Below, in pieces: positions 5,067 to 45,937 of a stretch of DNA of 64,000 bases (position 1 is the first letter of the stretch; each line of letters begins with the position of its first letter). Source of the stretch: Tubiluchus corallicola (taxonomy: Eukaryota; Animalia; Priapulida). Under the pieces are notes generated by a model that was given only the letters and a program-made list of their open reading frames with translations, did no database searches and was not told the origin of the DNA. The position numbers and the translations under genes are program-made. The stretch is taken from contig JAQGDQ010000838.1 in NCBI GenBank assembly GCA_030141605.1, positions 1 to 64,000 on the forward strand, written 5' to 3'.

Positions 5067-5246
5067 AACTGTAGTAGACATGAGCGACTAAGAAACACTC
5101 TTTATACAGAAATTAGCTCTCTATATCCAAACTTTACTTACTTATCAGATGATGACAAACTAAAATTATTATTAGGCTCAAACGATTCTGAAATACTCCA
5201 AATTGCTTATAATTTTGTTTTAAAATGTTTCAGTTCTAAGATATAA
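5067..5246 (+). mobile_element. C-terminus of a LINE (CR1/L2-like) ORF2
   Basis: Open frame NCSRHERLRNTLYTEISSLYPNFTYLSDDDKLKLLLGSNDSEILQIAYNFVLKCFSSKI* resembles non-LTR ORF2 C-termini; its last codons are the first satellite unit. Confidence 0.65.
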
Positions 5247-7864
5247 TTACAAAAAAACGAACTATATATGTGTGATTTTGTTTTAAAATGTTTCAGTTCT
5301 AAGATATAATTACAAAAAAACGAACTATATATGTGTGATTTTGTTTCAAAATGTTTCAGTTCTAAGATATAATTACAAAAAAACGAACTATATATGTGTG
5401 ATTTTGTTTTAAAATGTTTCAGTTCTAAGATATAATTACAAAAAAACGAACTATATATGTGTGATTTTGTTTTAAAATGTTTCAGTTCTAAGATATAATT
5501 ACAAAAAAACGAACTATATATGTGTGATTTTGTTTTAAAATGTTTCAGTTCTAAGATATAATTACAAAAAAACGAACTATATATGTGTGATTTTGTTTTA
5601 AAATGTTTCAGTTCTAAGATATAATTACAAAAAAACGAACTATATATGTGTGATTTTGTTTTAAAATGTTTCAGTTCTAAGATATAATTACAAAAAAACG
5701 AACTATATATGTGTGATTTTGTTTTAAAATGTTTCAGTTCTAAGATATAATTACAAAAAAACGAACTATATATGTGTGATTTTGTTTTAAAATGTTTCAG
5801 TTCTAAGATATAATTACAAAAAAACGAACTATATTGTGTGATTTTGTTTCAAAATGTTTCAGTTCTAAGATATAATTACAAAAACGAACTATATATGTGT
5901 GATTTTGTTTTAAAATGTTTCAGTTCTAAGATATAATTACAAAAAAACGAACTATATATGTGATTTTGTTTTAAAATGTTTCAGTTCTAAGATATAATTA
6001 CAAAAAAACGAACTATATGTGTGATTTTGTTTCAAAATGTTTCAGTTCTAAGATATATTACAAAAAACGAACTATATATGTGTGATTTTGTTTTAAAATG
6101 TTTCAGTTCTAAGATATAATTACAAAAAACGAACTATATATGTGTGATTTTGTTTTAAAATGTTTCAGTTCTAAGATATAATTACAAAAAAACGAACTAT
6201 ATATGTGTGATTTTGTTTCAAAATGTTTCAGTTCTAAGATATAATTACAAAAAAACGAACTATATATGTGTGATTTTGTTTTAAAATGTTTCAGTTCTAA
6301 GATATAATTACAAAAACGAACTATATATGTGATTTTGTTTTAAAATGTTTCAGTTCTAAGATATAATTACAAAAAAACGAACTATATATGTGTGATTTTG
6401 TTTCAAAATGTTTCAGTTCTAAGATATAATTACAAAAAAACGAACTATATATGTGTGATTTTGTTTTAAAATGTTTCAGTTCTAAGATATAATTACAAAA
6501 AACGAACTATGTGTGATTTTGTTTTAAAATGTTTCAGTTCTAAGATATAATTACAAAAAACGAACTATATATGTGTGATTTTGTTTTAAAATGTTTCAGT
6601 TCTAAGATATAATTACAAAAACGAACTATATATGGATTTGTTTTAAAATGTTTCAGTTCTAAGATATAATTACAAAACGAACTATATATGTGTGATTTTG
6701 TTTTAAAATGTTTCAATTCTAAGATATAATTACAAAAAAACGAACTATATATGTGTGATTTTGTTTTAAAATGTTTCAGTTCTAAGATATAATTACAAAA
6801 AAACGAACTATATATGTGTGATTTTGTTTTAAAATGTTTCAGTTCTAAGATATAATTACAAAAAACGAACTATATATGTGTGATTTTGTTTTAAATGTTT
6901 CAGTTCTAAGATATAATTACAAAAACGAACTATATATGTGTGATGTTTTAAAATGTTTCAGTTCTAAGATATAATTACAAAAAAACGAACTATATATGTG
7001 ATTTTGTTTCAAAATGTTTCAGTTCTAAGATATAATTACAAAAAACGAACTATATATGTGTGATTTTGTTTTAAAATGTTTCAGTTCTAAGATATAATTA
7101 CAAAAACGAACTATATATGTGTGATTTTGTTTTAAAATGTTTCAGTTCTAAGATATAATTACAAAAAACGAACTATATATGTGTGATTTTGTTTTAAAAT
7201 GTTTCAGTTCTAAGATATAATTACAAAAAAACGAACTATATATGTGTGATTTTGTTTTAAAATGTTTCAGTTCTAAGATATAATTACAAAAAAACGAACT
7301 ATATATGTGTGATTTTGTTTTAAAATGTTTCAGTTCTAGGATATAATTACAAAAAAAAACGAACTATATATGTGTGATTTTGTTTCAAAATGTTTCAGTT
7401 CTAAGATATAATTACAAAAAAACGAACTATATATGTGTGATTTTGTTTTAAAATGTTTCAGTTCTAAGATATAATTACAAAAAAACGAACTATATATGTG
7501 TGATTTTGTTTTAAAATGTTTCAGTTCTAAGATATAATTACAAAAAAACGAACTATATATGTGTGATTTTGTTTCAAAATGTTTCAGTTCTAAGATATAA
7601 TTACAAAAAAACGAACTATATATGTGTGATTTTGTTTTAAAATGTTTCAGTTCTAGGATATAATTACAAAAAACGAACTATATATGTGTGATTTTGTTTC
7701 AAAATGTTTCAGTTCTAAGATATAATTACAAAAAAACGAACTATATATGTGTGATTTTGTTTCAAAATGTTTCAGTTCTAAGATATAATTACAAAAAAAC
7801 GAACTATATATGTGTGATTTTGTTTTAAAATGTTTCAGTTTTGGATGTAATTACAAAAAAACCC
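5212..7864. repeat. 63-bp tandem satellite array (~42 units)
   Basis: Same unit as 1-425, highly homogeneous with homopolymer-length variants. Confidence 0.97.
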
Positions 7865-9690
7865 AACATATATATAACTAACATCACTTATCTAAATTAA
7901 ATACTATATGTGTATGCAACTACATTAAATTTGTGTTTATGTACATTTATGTTGTACCATTGGGTTTATACGTCAAAGTTTGATGTTCTGTCTTTAGTTT
8001 AAATTATTGAATGTGACTTGTATTCTTAGTATATGATTTTATAGCGTTATATATGTATGTAATTATACCTTTGTAATCAGTGTGTGTATAATGTGAATTG
8101 TAATTGTAACGGTAATTATCTAATAAAATATGAAAACATGAAAAATATGATTCAAATCTCTTAACTGTGAAGCTTTGAAATTGTTTTCTGCCATTAGTTT
8201 AAACAATATTTTATCAATCATAAGTACATTTATAACAAAAACAATGGGTACTTAATCAGACGCTGATTCATTACTCTGTTTCAGAGAGTAGGTACGTCAC
8301 TTATAAATTTAGTAGGCACACGATTACAAGAACTGTTAGTTATTCATTAAGTAAGACTGAAATTGAGAAGGTTTGTAACTTGTTGTTTGAATAGCGGGTA
8401 TGCGAAAGGGTGGGTTATGACATGTTTGATGTTGATGTTAAGCTACAAGAATAGAATGAGTGATGATGAAGCTAATGAAAGAAAGAGGAAAGTGCTGGGG
8501 TCAGGGGGACGCAAAAGTATAAATAATTCGCCTTGTAAGGTAGAATTCAGAGATTATTAATGTGCTATAGATTTAATTTTATTAATTAAAGCGCCCACTT
8601 TGTATTATAAACGAAATGACAGCAGATACTACAGCATTGTTAGAATCAGGAGACAGTGAAGTATCCGCCAAATAGCAGTTTCTGCCAGTATGTCAGTTTG
8701 CAGGTCGTGTTTTGCCAATTTGCGAGTAACGTAACAAAATCTTTGTGTTTGTAACTGCATGCCCACAATTTAATTAGCAGTAATGTACAGCCGTGATGCA
8801 AGAAGGTAGATAAGTCTTAATGCTTCTATCTAAAAATACTTTCGGTGATAAAACTTTGCGCAGCTGTGCTTAACAAATACAGCACTGAATTTACTATGAC
8901 ATCTATTCTGTTGTGAGACACAAGCGGTGGCTATATATCTAAATGATCACACAGTGTTACTATGGAACAGAATGGAAAAAATTACGACAGCGAATACAAC
9001 TAATACGTCAATCAGTTATAATAATAATTCGTGAAGTTGTTAAAAGACGGAAGAAGGAGTAAGTAGACTGGCATTTACTGATTTACTCTTTGACCCTAAA
9101 AAACATTCTTAATAAGACCCAAAAACATACTCTTAGTATATGTTAAGTTAATATATGAAGTATATTAAGTATAATAAGTACATGTTAAGTATACAAGTTA
9201 AATTAATATATGATCTATATGTTGAGAGTCCAGTATAACAAGTACATGTTAAGTATATAAGTTAAATTAATATATGTTCTATATGTTGAGAGTCAATTTA
9301 TTGAGTGTAAGCCATTCAGTAACATAAAACTCTAAATTTATTTAATTATTGTCAACAAAGAAGGTATTTGTGTCCTCTGCAAAGGAAGACGAGCTTTATT
9401 ACTACAAAGAGGCATGTTATTTACATACAAAAGAAATAAAAGTGGACCTAATGTTGATCCCTGAGGGAAATCGACTATTTTAAGGAGTTTGGAGCATTGA
9501 TATTGATATCCATCTACTTCAGTGCCTTGGATGCAACTTCAACATGTTGTTTGATGTTTGTTTACCTCAAGTTGATCATGTCTCACCATAACTCACAAGC
9601 CGTTTGTAAATAAGATGTTTGTTTTAGTAGGTGATAGTTGCTTTTATCATCTTTGTTTTCAGGAAAATTGTATGTGGCGGCATAAGAGTT
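7840..9690. repeat. Segmental duplication copy 2
   Basis: Matches 401-2316. Confidence 0.95.
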
Positions 9691-21535: not shown

Positions 21536-22677
21536 ATTTGTTTGCCGTAAAATGGATTTCATTTTACGTAATCCTCAGTGATAAAACGAATTAATAATTG
21601 TTAAAACACTGCTACACTGCTAAAAGCAAATGCGTTTGGTGCAAAACTATGAAGTACTGTGCACAAAACTGAAACTAGAAACAACTAGAAATACTCATTT
21701 ACATACATAGATACGATAGATACAGTAATACAATATATAGGGACAATATAAGTAAAATGTATAATAAACGCAAGACAAAGTTTACATTAATTTATCACAA
21801 TATACGCATAATACGTAATACAAAACATAGAGTAATATGGTACATAAAATACATAATAACAAGGACTAGGTTCACACCAATTTCGCAATAAACACATTAC
21901 AATCATATGTAATACACAACAGAAATTACTTGCAGATTGCCGTTTTAATTTACGAATGAGTTGCGAATTAACATACAACTACTACAGCTATAGCTCACGG
22001 AAGGCCAAAATGCTAATGTATTGAAGGGGCTTCAATTTTAAAAGAGTGAATACTGTAAAAGGCTAAATACCTACTAAATAAACAAACAGGTGGCAGCACC
22101 GTGGCAGTAATTGAAAACTAAATTAAGACCAAAAAGGGCCTATGCACCCACTGCAATATACATTTTAATTACATTAGTGCCTCTCTTTCTATAAATGGTC
22201 CGAATTAGGTTAATCATTGTTTTCTAAGCCGCATCCGAGAAAAATGGAGAGTAGAGAAAAAGAGAGAATAGTGAAGAAATGGAGAGGAAAAAGAGATGAG
22301 TAGAGCCCTATTTAATAATCTTGTTTTAAGTTTGCTAGATCGTAATGCAGTTACGTCTTCTTCAGATCATTGAAATTCCATCTCTTTGCTTAACACCAAA
22401 GGACCTTGCAAAAAGATGTCACAATCCAGCCACACTTCTAGAAGTTCATGGTGCGTCCAAATTTAATTTGAAGAAAAGAGGTAATAAAAGACGAAGTGGT
22501 TATGGCAAACGTTCATCAACTGGTTTTGGCACTGGATCATCCACTGGTTATGGTGCCAAGTCTTCTACTGGTTACGGTGCGGGATCGTCCAATGGTTATG
22601 GTGCTGGATCGGCCACTGGTTATGGTTCGCAATCCCCTTCTGGTTATGGCTCAGGATTCACCAATGGTTATTTTTAG
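16483..22677 (+). CDS. Secreted divergent pentraxin/LamG (ConA-like) domain protein with GYG-repeat tail, ~372 aa, 8 exons
   Basis: Phase-compatible GT-AG exons 16483-16518, 17118-17144, 17517-17595, 18560-18713, 19851-20003, 20130-20256, 21182-21412, 22366-22677 (1119 nt). Pentraxin-like motifs FTVCWWLK, HYCVVVD, VYWNG, LSDINVYSRALS, CxxCGDVF. The first three exons are tentative. Confidence 0.75.
17517..17595 (+). CDS. Pentraxin-like gene, probable exon (end of signal peptide)
   Basis: tttctttcgtag acceptor and G|gtaatt donor; VVATLDIWTVHGARGYNFKKMKTEKF; phase 0 to 1 fits the next exon. Confidence 0.5.
18105..18525. repeat. (CTTA/CTTG/CATA)n tetranucleotide microsatellite, intronic
   Basis: Direct inspection. 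Confidence 0.9.
18560..18713 (+). CDS. Pentraxin-like gene exon
   Basis: ttttatag acceptor and TG|gtatga donor; TTVPCNTLD...DEFTVC. Confidence 0.8.
19135..19630. repeat. ~70-85-bp minisatellite with variable (CACTT)n, intronic
   Basis: Unit ctatttcgcatcgttgctcttgctttactttcctgttactttaccttacttcactcttt(cactt)n, about 6 copies. Confidence 0.9.
19851..20003 (+). CDS. Pentraxin-like gene exon
   Basis: WLKGKADVFYLHS...GNEFT; GA|gtaagt donor. Confidence 0.8.
20130..20256 (+). CDS. Pentraxin-like gene exon
   Basis: FVTVNPS...FIHYCVVVD...VYWNGGAD; gtaaga donor. Confidence 0.8.
20860..21118 (+). mobile_element. Helentron/DINE-like non-autonomous element (tentative)
   Basis: Starts actag with an imperfect palindrome ggcactcagaagaggtgcc, internal atgaccttgacc motif, weak 3' hairpin. 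Confidence 0.35.
21182..21412 (+). CDS. Pentraxin-like gene exon
   Basis: VQQQPAAF...LSDINVYSRALSASRI...PLGG; gtaagt donor. Confidence 0.85.
22366..22677 (+). CDS. Pentraxin-like gene terminal exon with GYG octapeptide repeats
   Basis: cttcttcag acceptor, IIEIPSLC...NGYF*, AATAAA at 22843-22848. Confidence 0.8.
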   Translation: MIEIPSLCLTPKDLAKRCHNPATLLEVHGASKFNLKKRGNKRRSGYGKRSSTGFGTGSSTGYGAKSSTGYGAGSSNGYGAGSATGYGSQSPSGYGSGFTNGYF

Positions 22678-41516: not shown

Positions 41517-41604
<88 letters not shown>

Positions 41605-41635
41605 CAGTAGCAGTAGTAGCAGTAGCAGTAGCAGC

Positions 41636-41689
<54 letters not shown>
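41517..41689. repeat. (CAG)n-(TAG)n trinucleotide repeat, tail of the adjacent minus-strand LINE
   Basis: On the minus strand it follows aataaagatttt directly. Confidence 0.95.
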
Positions 41690-41690
<1 letters not shown>

Positions 41691-42095
41691 AAATCTTTAT
41701 TTGTCATTTTAAAAACATTGACCATCATAATAAAAGACAGACAATCAGTGTTAGTTCATATAAAAACATACACTGTTCTGAGCAAATGCGTCTGGTGCAA
41801 GCTAAACTATAAGTGCAACTAGAAATTCAAAAATAAAATATAAACTAGTTTAGTAAGGTCTAGGAAAAATAAAATTATGATATGAGTAAGTATCATCGTG
41901 TTCGTGTGTCGGATATTCAAAACAAGTCATTAAATGTTTTTTAATTAAGACTTGAATATTGATAAAGAGCTGCTGTGTTTTAGTGATGTCGGTAATGAAT
42001 TCCAGAGTTGTATTGCTTGCTTAGTAATGGAATTCTTTCCATATTGATGGTTCGAAATTTGTTTCTTCAATTGCATGGCTTTTTGTTTTAATTAT
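41690..42095 (-). mobile_element. LINE 3' end fragment
   Basis: Minus strand YGKNSITKQAIQLWNSLPTSLKHSSSLSIFKS (WNSLP motif). Confidence 0.75.
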
Positions 42096-42302
42096 TTAGA
42101 TTTTCATTGATTCAAAATTTAAACTATTTAAAGAGAATAAATTATCGTGTGGATGAATCAATAATCTTTTTTGTTGTTTTCTTTCAGTGGTATCTGATGT
42201 ACAATCTGCGCAAAACGTTGTTCTGGGAATTATTTGCATTGTTTGCGGGAATTTAGCTTGCCAAAATTGTACTGGACAGTGTACACTAGGCATCTCTTAA
42301 CA

Positions 42303-44015
42303 ATGGCCATGATACCAGCAAATGTAGTGAACACGCCGAACTACGTGGTACAAGAAATGGCTGTACAAAATATGGCGACCGTGCAGCAAAAGCAAGACAG
42401 ACACCTAGCGGGAGATATAACAACTAAGAAACTGGCATTTGCTGCAGCGATCACTCAAACGGTTTTTGGTTTGATTTTTCTGCTTTTGCAAGTTATTGTG
42501 GTTTCTGTGACCTGTCGTGGTTGTGACGGAGCGTTGATTGGCTTATGGGCAGGCATTGTGTTTACAGTCACAGGAATTGTGGGATGTGTAGGAAGATTTA
42601 AGGACAGACCAGGAGTGTGGATAGGTTTCATGGTGTTATCTATTATTTCTGCAATAATAACATGCATAGCGTTAATTACAGCTGGTATTGTAGCAGCATT
42701 TACATCGGATCAAAACAGCACAGTTCACAATATTCACGTAACGTACGTTGCCTTTTGTGTACTAGAATTTATTACATCCCTTTTCTCAGCTGTAGTGTGC
42801 TGCAAGTTAATGTGCTGTAGAGTGACAGATTACAGCAAAAATCAAATGACAATCGTACCAGCATCAGCTACTGAACCTGGAAGAATGACAGGTGTGGTTG
42901 CCATCAATCAAGAGCAGAAGACGGAAGTTGTGTACGACCTTCCTTATGTTACACCACTTCCGCCGACGATGTCTGCAGGTCCTGCACTACCTCCTAGACC
43001 AGATGAAGTCACCGGTAACAACAAAATGCGATACAGAGAAAATCTTGCAAAAACTACTTCGGATGAAGTTGACACGAAGAGGAGCAAAATTCGCTATCTT
43101 GAAAAACTTGGGGAAGGAAGTTACAATGAAGTTTACAAAGCCATACTGCACAAAGATGCACAAGATAGAAACGTAGAAGAAAAAACAGTCATAGCCAAGT
43201 GTGCAATAAGGGGAAAACGAAATCAGTTTGTTACTGCATATCACGAAAAAGAGCTTGAGACTTTGAGAGAAATTCCTGTCCATGAAAATCTGCTGGGTAT
43301 TATCACGAAAATAAATGATGCAGACAAAGGTCAGGTGGTAATCGTTGATTATATGGAGGATGGAGACTTAAAATCGTTCCTTGTGAAGGAAGCAGAGTGT
43401 ACCGACCAGTACACAAATAGTGCTAACTTGACTGTCAGGATGGCAGTATCATTTGCTTCTGACATTGTCTCTGGACTTGAACATCTGGCTAAGCATAAAT
43501 GCTTGTGTCGTGATTTGGCCGCTAGGAGCATTCTTGTCTCTGCAGACCTTAGGTGCAAGGTCACTAAATTTGGGAAAGAAGAAGACGTTGTTAGTTATCG
43601 GTGCAGCGTGAAGAGATTACAAAAGCGTTTGCCAGTTCGCTGGATGGCACCCGAGTCTTTGCAATTTAACAAGTATTCTACAGAATCAGATGTCTGGTCA
43701 TTTGGGGTACTCTTCTGGGAAATCGTAACTCTTGGAGCTACGCCCTATCCAGAACACAAAACGGCTGGTGAGGTCGTTGAAGCCATCAGAAATGGATACC
43801 GCATGGAGTGTCCTCCGGGCTGCTCAGAGGAGTTGTATGAGCTGATCGAAGTTTGCTGGCGTGAAAGTCCCGATGACAGACCCAGCTTTCAACAACTGCG
43901 TCAGCAGTTACAGCAGATGCTGGAAGATGTCAGTGGCTACGAATCATTATCTGATTATAAGCTCATTGATGTCTATCAGGACCTCATGGCGGGTAACATT
44001 GACGAAATTGTCTGA
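42303..44015 (+). CDS. MS4A/CD20-like four-TM protein fused to a tyrosine pseudokinase with an ITAM-like tail (570 aa, intronless CDS)
   Basis: ATG in acaATGG context with a splice acceptor at 42187. Four hydrophobic helices with MS4A-like GLWAGIVF..G and E..S..SA..CC. TK motifs [35 protein letters not shown]...P..RP.F. Confidence 0.92.
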
Positions 44016-44646: not shown

Positions 44647-45937
44647 GTGATATGTGGTGTACGTGTACCACCTGTGATATAGGACGCTTTCGTTACGACA
44701 CCACAAACACTTTTTGCTACTAATTTCCGATACGTGCTGACACGTGGGTTCAGTGAATCTTTCCATTTAAGCATAGTTCACAGACATGTATTCCGAATAG
44801 AACCAAACAAAACAGTTCTTAATATTGCCGATAAATTCTGGGTTTAATGAAATAATAAGAACTAAAAAAAAAACAATCCACTCTAATCCAAAACAACAAC
44901 AAAGTTGTTATAATTACAAACAACGTTTCCAGACAACCTACGATAAACAGAAGACTAGTTAGCCCCAACCCAGGTGAGGGAGAATGATGTAAGGTAAGTA
45001 TACTTATCAGTTGTAGTGACTGCTGTCGGATTCCAACGTTTGACGATCTCCATCACTCTGGAAGCTGGAATAACGTGAGTAACCGGTTATGCGAACTTCG
45101 TGGAATCTTGAGCAGCTACTCTTCCAAAGCTTGAGCGGGGGTGGGTGGGTGTAATCTTACGTGGCCACTTCTACAATGCTTGTCAGGTGTACCGGAGTCG
45201 TAAGTGGTTACTTCTCCGATCCTAGTGGAGTGCAGTGGAGTCCTGGCCCATGGAGCTCGTAGAACTACCATTGGTACTACGTCTGGTCATCGCCTGGTTG
45301 TTTCTGCACCAGATCTCCCGAATTTCCGTTTACAGCAGTACGTCAAATAACGAATAATAGACAGTTTATTGGTGTTTTCGCCTCACGGCTCGAACACCTA
45401 ACCCTTTGGTGTGTCAGTGCCCTTTAATAACTTTCTGTCGCCACAATAATTAAGTTTTGACTTCGACTGTTAATAAATGTTCGTCGGAAGCCATATTCGA
45501 CGACTTCACTGGCCTAGCACGTTCGACACACTGTGTTGAGCCTGGTTTCAATTTCTAGGACAGGTAAAACTGGATGACCTTGTCCTTTAACACGACGGTT
45601 CATTGGCTAGATAGCCTGTTCAGTTGAGCGTATGACCAATCACTTACTTTCTTGTAAAGGAGATCTAGGACAGGTATGAGGTGGGACCCTTCCCAGAGCT
45701 AACTAGATGCATGCTCATATATGTACAGTCACAACTTGCTTTACTGTAGTAGGTAAATTCGCTTAATGAGTAATTAACTAATTACTCATTCAATTAACAT
45801 AAGTAATTAGCTAAATTAAGCTATTAATGTAGCCTAAGTATGGGATATACACAAAATCATACTAGAATACAGTTCAACTATATTAAAAGGGGTTGCAATG
45901 CTGCTCGGTAGTTCTTATATTCCAGACTGACGTCACA
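44647..45937. mobile_element. Possible solo LTR (tentative)
   Basis: GC-richer ~1.3-kb segment bounded by tgtga...tcaca; no convincing TSD found. Confidence 0.3.

Follow-up and report, generated by a model that had tools for sequence, protein, structure and literature searches.

What is a tyrosine kinase domain kept for once it has lost the residues that bind its metal ions? The question is raised by a gene in the window, by which we mean the whole 64,000-nucleotide (nt) stretch of the priapulid Tubiluchus corallicola analysed here (GenBank assembly GCA_030141605.1, contig JAQGDQ010000838.1, positions 1 to 64,000 of the forward strand). The window's only long open reading frame (ORF), at 42303-44015 on the forward strand, has an intronless coding region that runs without stops for 570 amino acids (aa) and joins an N-terminal CD20-like domain of four membrane helices to a tyrosine pseudokinase. 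An earlier, sequence-only reading had singled out 43110..43580; the kinase motifs do lie there, but that span covers just a portion of the fusion gene, and the four-pass domain in the N-terminal third, absent from that reading, is the gene's more unusual feature. The fusion of a CD20-like membrane domain with a pseudokinase is real and recurs in two Priapulus caudatus proteins, P0003 and P0084 (as a pair, XP_014662088.1 and XP_014667023.1). We propose, with a probability of roughly 0.55-0.6, that the product is a membrane scaffold in which a CD20-like domain and a dead kinase are combined and which would be phosphorylated in trans. The features of the gene are as follows:

42303..44015, forward strand: whole gene, a single-exon ORF with four-pass CD20-like domain, linker, tyrosine pseudokinase and tyrosine tail; ATG context ACAATGG
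42429..42821, forward strand: predicted four-helix CD20/MS4A/sarcospan-like membrane domain, residues ~43-173, from hydropathy, AlphaFold2 (AF2) model, profile and superposition
42798..42818, forward strand: CCxxxCC cluster past transmembrane helix (TM) 4, kept in all three family members, presumably a palmitoylation site
42933..42998, forward strand: linker with YDLPY and the class II SH3-ligand motif PALPPR (227-232); PxxPxR in all three members
43092..43910, forward strand: tyrosine-kinase-like pseudokinase domain, residues 264-536 (Pfam PF07714, E 3.9e-68)
43110..43127, forward strand: Gly loop GEGSYN, third Gly replaced by Asn
43188..43199, forward strand: beta-3 VIAK, with Lys299 in place and Ile297 standing for the adenine-pocket Ala
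43410..43418, forward strand: kinase-insert YxN (Y370), a putative Grb2-SH2-type docking motif, in all three members, P0113 and P0004
43506..43529, forward strand: catalytic loop CRDLAARS, Asp kept, His replaced by Cys and Asn by Ser
43566..43574, forward strand: KFG replacing DFG, the DFG Asp being Lys422
43596..43598, forward strand: activation-loop Tyr432, in all three members and in 0 of 43 other kinases at this column
43938..43985, forward strand: C-terminal tail with Y546, Y552 and Y558 spaced as in immunoreceptor tyrosine-based activation motifs (ITAMs); only Y546 is kept in both Priapulus proteins
42169..42187, forward strand: likely 3' splice site of an intron in the 5' untranslated region (UTR), a polypyrimidine tract followed by CAG

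The kinase part was modelled separately, its quality in the full-length model being poor. The separate model, built from an alignment of 82 rows, most of them active kinases, has a predicted local distance difference test score (pLDDT) of 88.4 and a Foldseek template-modelling score of ~0.8 to FGFR kinases; together with PF07714 and the RDLAAR-type loop, its FGFR/RET-like bilobed shape predicts a fold of the tyrosine kinase group. The motif changes that the sequence-only reading had listed, namely the lost third Gly of GEGSYN, HRDLAARN to CRDLAARS and DFG to KFG, are all present in one frame, and the residues that it described as kept are indeed kept, with no stops: alpha-C Glu317, catalytic Asp404 and, in the C-lobe, APE Glu451, alpha-F Asp463 and Arg526. 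Its beta-3 Lys is likewise in place as Lys299, but VIAK is not an intact VAIK, because Ile297 takes the place of the Ala found in 119 of 128 kinase domains, the residue (Ala70) that lines the purine pocket (PMC4718504). The hinge and Gly272 are normal in the alignment. The alignment includes 42 other related kinases, of which 40 carry the catalytic-loop Asn and 40 carry the DFG Asp, so that both losses are true departures; all 42 have the alpha-C Glu, APE Glu, alpha-F Asp and Arg526 of the window protein. The lost pair corresponds to Asn171 and Asp184, the residues that bind the cations (PMC4718504), in agreement with their earlier designation as Mg2+ ligands. By the sequence definition, under which a pseudokinase lacks at least one of the beta-3 Lys, HRD Asp and DFG Asp (PMC4718504), the domain classifies as one through the DFG Asp to Lys422 change, with Lys299 and Asp404 kept.

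The N-terminus has four membrane helices by hydropathy, modelled by AF2 with a pLDDT of ~60-80 and joined by short loops. Pfam finds only weak tetraspanin and CD20 matches there in the 570-aa protein: against the CD20-like family PF04103 (gathering cut-off 27.9 bits) the window copy scores 17.8 bits as a whole and 23.7 for the part, both below the cut-off, while P0003 lies above it at 48.6 and P0084 slightly under it at 27.7. A membrane profile of the three sequences finds CD20 (E 3.7e-4) and FceRI-beta (E 0.0096) in the PDB, the two making up six of seven matches; the membrane domain of the window copy alone, searched against PDB sequences, gave only a chance match to a big defensin. The best superposition of the membrane model is with a chain of the dystrophin-glycoprotein complex (Z 17.5, root-mean-square deviation (rmsd) 2.8, 136 aligned), which we take to be sarcospan, followed by FceRI chain B (Z 16.3, rmsd 2.8, 137 aligned), tied by uroplakin at 16.3, and CD20 (Z 12.3, rmsd 3.3, 131 aligned), on a scale on which unrelated helix bundles reach Z 14.6. 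These comparisons predict a CD20-like, tetraspan four-helix fold. Vertebrate MS4A proteins are recognised by a second outer loop that carries a Cys pair and by the TM3 motifs SLx2Nx2 and Sx3Ax2G (PMC11663944). In the alignment the TM3 Asn motif is missing and the second outer loop of the window copy, unlike that of P0003 with its two Cys, has none; the loop also differs strongly in length among the three proteins. Fold and profile make the membrane part CD20-like; its motifs are not those of a vertebrate MS4A.

P0003 is the best match among 67 found for the window protein, and P0084 is the only multi-pass protein (at least three N-terminal helices) among the best 150 of 70,919 representatives; both are automatically labelled 'Ret-like'. 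Each has four helices, the CCxxxCC cluster, PxxPxR, YxN, a tail Tyr and a pseudokinase with Asn replaced by Ser and NFG for DFG (CEGSTS/NRDLSARS/NFG in P0003; SQGRTG/HRDLSTRS/NFG in P0084, with the beta-3 Lys changed to Arg). They differ from the window copy in having NFG rather than KFG, the beta-3 Ala, a longer second outer loop and no ITAM-spaced second Tyr. Kinase identity between the window copy and these proteins is 43-44%, against 67% between the two, and homology extends to the membrane and linker part taken alone (pairwise E 1e-14 and 6e-12). The membrane profile, built from these same three proteins, matched them alone among 241 fetched.

Trees were made from 46 and then 24 rows chosen from 128 kinase domains, with the motif columns dropped. 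In both, the three four-pass proteins group together as a single clade, with support of 100/97 in the 46-row tree, from a bootstrap that had not fully settled, and 97 in the second; the approximately unbiased (AU) test rejects a placement of the window copy among active Lingula kinases (p 0.0014). Beside them stands P0113, a single-pass receptor pseudokinase from Logan with immunoglobulin (Ig) domains, which resembles them in the loss of both metal ligands (HRDLAARS and NFG) but differs in its layout and has an intact Gly loop and beta-3 Lys. Next come active Lingula kinases; the Lingula anatina Cad96Ca-like/FGFR-like proteins P0004 and P0205 are near kinase relatives, but keep HRD..N and DFG. 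The sister position of P0113 has moderate support (99/93, and 87 under a mixture model); because the alternative keeps an AU p of 0.155, it is plausible, and no more than that, that the kinase was already dead before it was fused to the membrane domain. Deeper forks are weak. The window protein does not qualify as an orthologue of RET, FGFR or Cad96Ca, having no cadherin or Ig ectodomain by Pfam and P0113 and Lingula rows, not arthropod Cad96Ca, as neighbours. Two further invertebrate Ig receptors, P0118 of Lingula (NFG) and P0216 of Ptychodera (NIG with HGELTARS), lost the DFG Asp separately, elsewhere in the tree.

Against this background the substitutions, described earlier as coordinated, are layered instead. 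All three members have the Asn to Ser change and lack the DFG Asp, and the two relatives do not restore HRD..N or DFG; only the window lineage has Cys for the HRD His, Asn for the third Gly, Lys in KFG and Ile for the beta-3 Ala. Every member retains the alpha-C Glu, the DFG Phe, APE, the alpha-F Asp and Arg526. Two of the three have Cys or Asn in place of the HRD His. The Gly loop decays differently in each, P0003 and P0084 lacking the first Gly, and P0084 has also lost the beta-3 Lys, so that catalysis is not being maintained. With both Mg2+ ligands lost throughout and other catalytic parts decaying differently, the family has the pattern of relaxed catalysis with a retained fold, and the domain very probably performs little or no catalysis.

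Four of six sequencing runs contain the stretch, X4 and X5 being from other studies and X1 and X2 possibly from the window's own sample. X1 yields a 620-nt contig over 42966-43585, and X2 covers 43470-43620, both with 0 differences; X4 and X5 give diverged contigs, with 44 differences in 405 nt and 77 in 471 nt respectively. In these the Ser409 codon has a silent change only and none is listed at KFG; differences within ~30 nt of a contig end are apparently unlisted, and Cys402 is verifiable in the X4 copy only. As Ser409 and KFG persist in contigs of three studies (X1, X4, X5), the motifs are not assembly errors, and the reads do not restore the canonical residues. A chimeric assembly was considered and rejected: overlapping contigs span TM2, linker and kinase, and the fusion recurs in Priapulus.

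X1 contains at least two further copies, ~82-89% identical and of comparable depth, one of which extends over the membrane part, and there are therefore at least two loci regardless of ploidy; the 64,000 nt themselves hold no second copy. One diverged copy cannot be aligned at residues ~47-75 and 98-143, whereas its TM2, TM4 and linker align. The listing gives 46 differences between copies in the kinase domain. Silent changes account for 27 of them, where 23-30% would be expected (p 1e-7 to 4e-5); the tally excludes three rows outside the coding sequence and two from the membrane region, each a replacement. The ratio of nonsynonymous to synonymous substitution rates (dN/dS) is roughly 0.2-0.3, uncorrected and with copies pooled from 40 of 364 difference rows plus 12 further X4/X5 rows. 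At least six indels lie in the ORF, four further indel rows falling outside the listing; paired by equal depth, the six give net changes of 0, 0 and +3. Because the layout and losses are shared, the members form one clade and most changes are silent, we hold with high confidence that this is an old, selected tyrosine pseudokinase gene rather than a decaying retrocopy. The proposal that both metal ligands were lost in a preserved fold under selection is upheld by the homologues' shared losses, the intact FGFR/RET-like model and the silent bias.

The selected pseudokinase of the sequence-only reading is borne out by these shared losses and the silent bias; the scaffold role that it attached to it is one that we, too, can only infer. 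The class II motif and the YxN presumably bind SH3 and Grb2-type SH2 domains, respectively, and the retention of PxxPxR, YxN, Tyr432 and the first tail Tyr in all three members suggests a scaffold phosphorylated in trans. Both termini would be cytoplasmic, given the even number of helices and a CD20-like topology, and the Cys cluster would be palmitoylated. A Src-family kinase might dock on PALPPR, or a partner Ret/Cad96Ca-like receptor tyrosine kinase (RTK) might phosphorylate the YxN site, Y432 and the tail Tyr, after which the phosphorylated scaffold would recruit SH2/SH3 adaptors, with the folded pseudokinase retained as a binding surface. Such a mode would combine that of FceRI-beta, a tetraspan with a phosphorylated tail, with that of HER3 and EphB6, dead kinases phosphorylated in trans (PMC11663944, PMC13259870).

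Several observations weigh against this proposal. Only three full-length four-pass members are known, and the dN/dS rests on the pooled sample described above. Short docking motifs can arise by chance. The ITAM spacing of the window copy's tail appears in 1.2% of shuffles, but this pattern occurs in 18 of 128 kinase rows, the window copy included, so that the spacing is inherited, not new. Both the YxN and the ITAM-spaced tail are found in active relatives and may be inherited leftovers; the full spacing is absent from both Priapulus proteins. Moreover, the catalytic Asp and alpha-C Glu are kept in all three members and the beta-3 Lys in two, CASK is active without Asp184, and nucleotide binding is unreliable to predict from sequence (PMC4718504).

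These retained residues bear on two other readings. The domain might be a metal-free nucleotide-binding switch, binding ATP without Mg2+, with Lys422 replacing the cation and binding setting the conformation; this would be compatible with a scaffold and we consider it unlikely. STRAD-alpha places basic side chains where the cation would be (PMC4718504), EphB6, with HRSxxxxS and RLG, has an accessible site (PMC13259870, Table 2), Lys422 is retained in the diverged X4 and X5 copies, and the hinge and Gly272 are normal. Yet P0003, P0084 and P0113 have Asn at this position, which disfavours the earlier suggestion of a Lys replacing the cation charge as a mechanism of the family. Ile297 may also crowd the purine pocket: PTK7 (VLVK) and RYK (AFVK), in which the Ala is replaced too, are listed as occluded, although other residues are named as the cause in PTK7 (PMC13259870). 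The lineage-specific Lys, the missing beta-3 Lys of P0084 and Ile297 in the adenine pocket together weaken the idea. A weakly active kinase after the manner of CASK, in which membrane-domain clustering would trigger Mg-independent phosphotransfer through Asp404, Lys299 and Glu317, seems quite improbable. CASK provides a precedent for weak atypical activity (PMC4718504), the catalytic Asp and tyrosine-kinase Arg are invariant in all members, and the clade-specific activation-loop Tyr is retained, but P0084 lacks the beta-3 Lys, both Priapulus proteins lack the first Gly, and two of three members have lost the HRD His.

RTK genes usually have many introns, and the intronless coding region, as in a processed pseudogene, along with several diverged copies in the sequencing runs, could point to a functionless decaying retrocopy or a chance retrocopy chimera. 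Retroposition is possible as the origin; the gene is not decaying, given a dN/dS well away from 1 and an open frame. The 570 open codons, the silent-site bias and the frame-preserving indels contradict a neutral pattern, the fusion and residue losses are shared at just 43-44% kinase identity to Priapulus, and a Kozak-like ATG lies downstream of an acceptor-like site; this reading is already largely refuted and retains a very small likelihood. A bolder extension of the scaffold proposal, which we entertain tentatively and with considerable doubt, is that these proteins are a new class of receptors, four-pass sensors of the CD20-like kind with a tyrosine pseudokinase built in, born when a tetraspan replaced the ectodomain of a dead Ig-type RTK, duplicated, diversified in their outer loops for chemical or immune ligands, and signalling by trans-phosphorylation. 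Hints in this direction are the several copies per genome, the unalignable outer regions of one copy, the variable second loop and the response of MS4A proteins to chemical ligands (PMC11663944).

The acceptor-like site, followed by an in-frame TGA (42195-42197) and then a favourable ATG context, points to a first exon that would be non-coding; the first AATAAA downstream of the ORF is at 45472. One X4 contig, a variant or a paralogue, lacks 36 nt at 42243-42280 in the presumed 5' UTR, with TG..AG as the ends. Just upstream of the acceptor-like site, 41517-42054 holds a GCA-then-GTA microsatellite and then a very high-copy interspersed repeat, whose contig depth is ~200,000-330,000, where the gene itself has a few hundred. 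Elsewhere, 22339-22677 (forward strand) is a 24-nt tandem repeat encoding Gly/Tyr/Ser-rich octapeptides up to a stop codon, probably the final exon of a different gene, and 1-436 and 5212-7875 belong to a 63-base-pair AT-rich satellite, with ~43 copies in the longer array, whose weak Aida_C2 Pfam matches are likely artefacts.

Human receptor tyrosine pseudokinases are single-pass proteins, nearly all with large ectodomains. The window protein, with four helices, short loops and no ectodomain family, is not of this type, and its kinase comes from the Ret/FGFR/Cad96Ca-like radiation. It resembles human EphB6, EphA10, HER3, PTK7, ROR1/2, RYK and STYK1 in being a membrane-anchored tyrosine kinase fold with degraded motifs, and EphB6 matches it further in the Asn to Ser change and in having a basic residue where the DFG Asp would be (PMC13259870). 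Single-pass forms account for >94% of metazoan and plant membrane kinases (PMC10463195). CD20 (MS4A1), FceRI-beta (MS4A2) and sarcospan-type tetraspans share the four-helix bundle, but the solved chains listed have no kinase domain and the vertebrate TM3 motifs are unmatched in the window protein. SH2/SH3 sites occur in MS4A tails, and MS4A2 contains an ITAM and boosts signalling that depends on Lyn (PMC11663944); invertebrates are said to have no true MS4A genes (PMC2826416), while a CD20-like family is listed across metazoans (PMC5620054).

A profile search gave no further four-pass member among 47 matches. A search with the membrane region only gave no match among 3167 candidates and missed P0003 too, which marks it as insensitive. 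In a metagenome scan none of 18 loci matched the membrane profile, and all nine with a readable catalytic loop were canonical; atlas searches returned kinase clusters without CD20 among those listed, which is no proof of absence. The fusion is already visible in the precomputed Pfam annotation of P0003. We found no description of it in a mostly non-subscription literature, the supplements of PMC8662651 and PMC10463195 lying outside its scope, and no paper on either Priapulus protein; the holozoan tyrosine kinome paper mentions neither CD20 nor Priapulus in its main text (PMC8662651). A receptor type with a four-pass CD20-like anchor and a pseudokinase is apparently undescribed.

The range of these proteins looks narrow so far, and this limits their general impact. 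Within it, they form a graded natural series of ATP-site decay with the fold kept, from P0113 (NFG, intact Gly loop) through P0003 and P0084 (Lys lost) to the window copy (KFG, Ile). They also represent a different wiring, in which a tetraspan and a kinase-like docking module, which are separate chains in vertebrates (FceRI-beta with Lyn), are placed in one polypeptide, and they offer a direct handle on the function of invertebrate CD20-like proteins.
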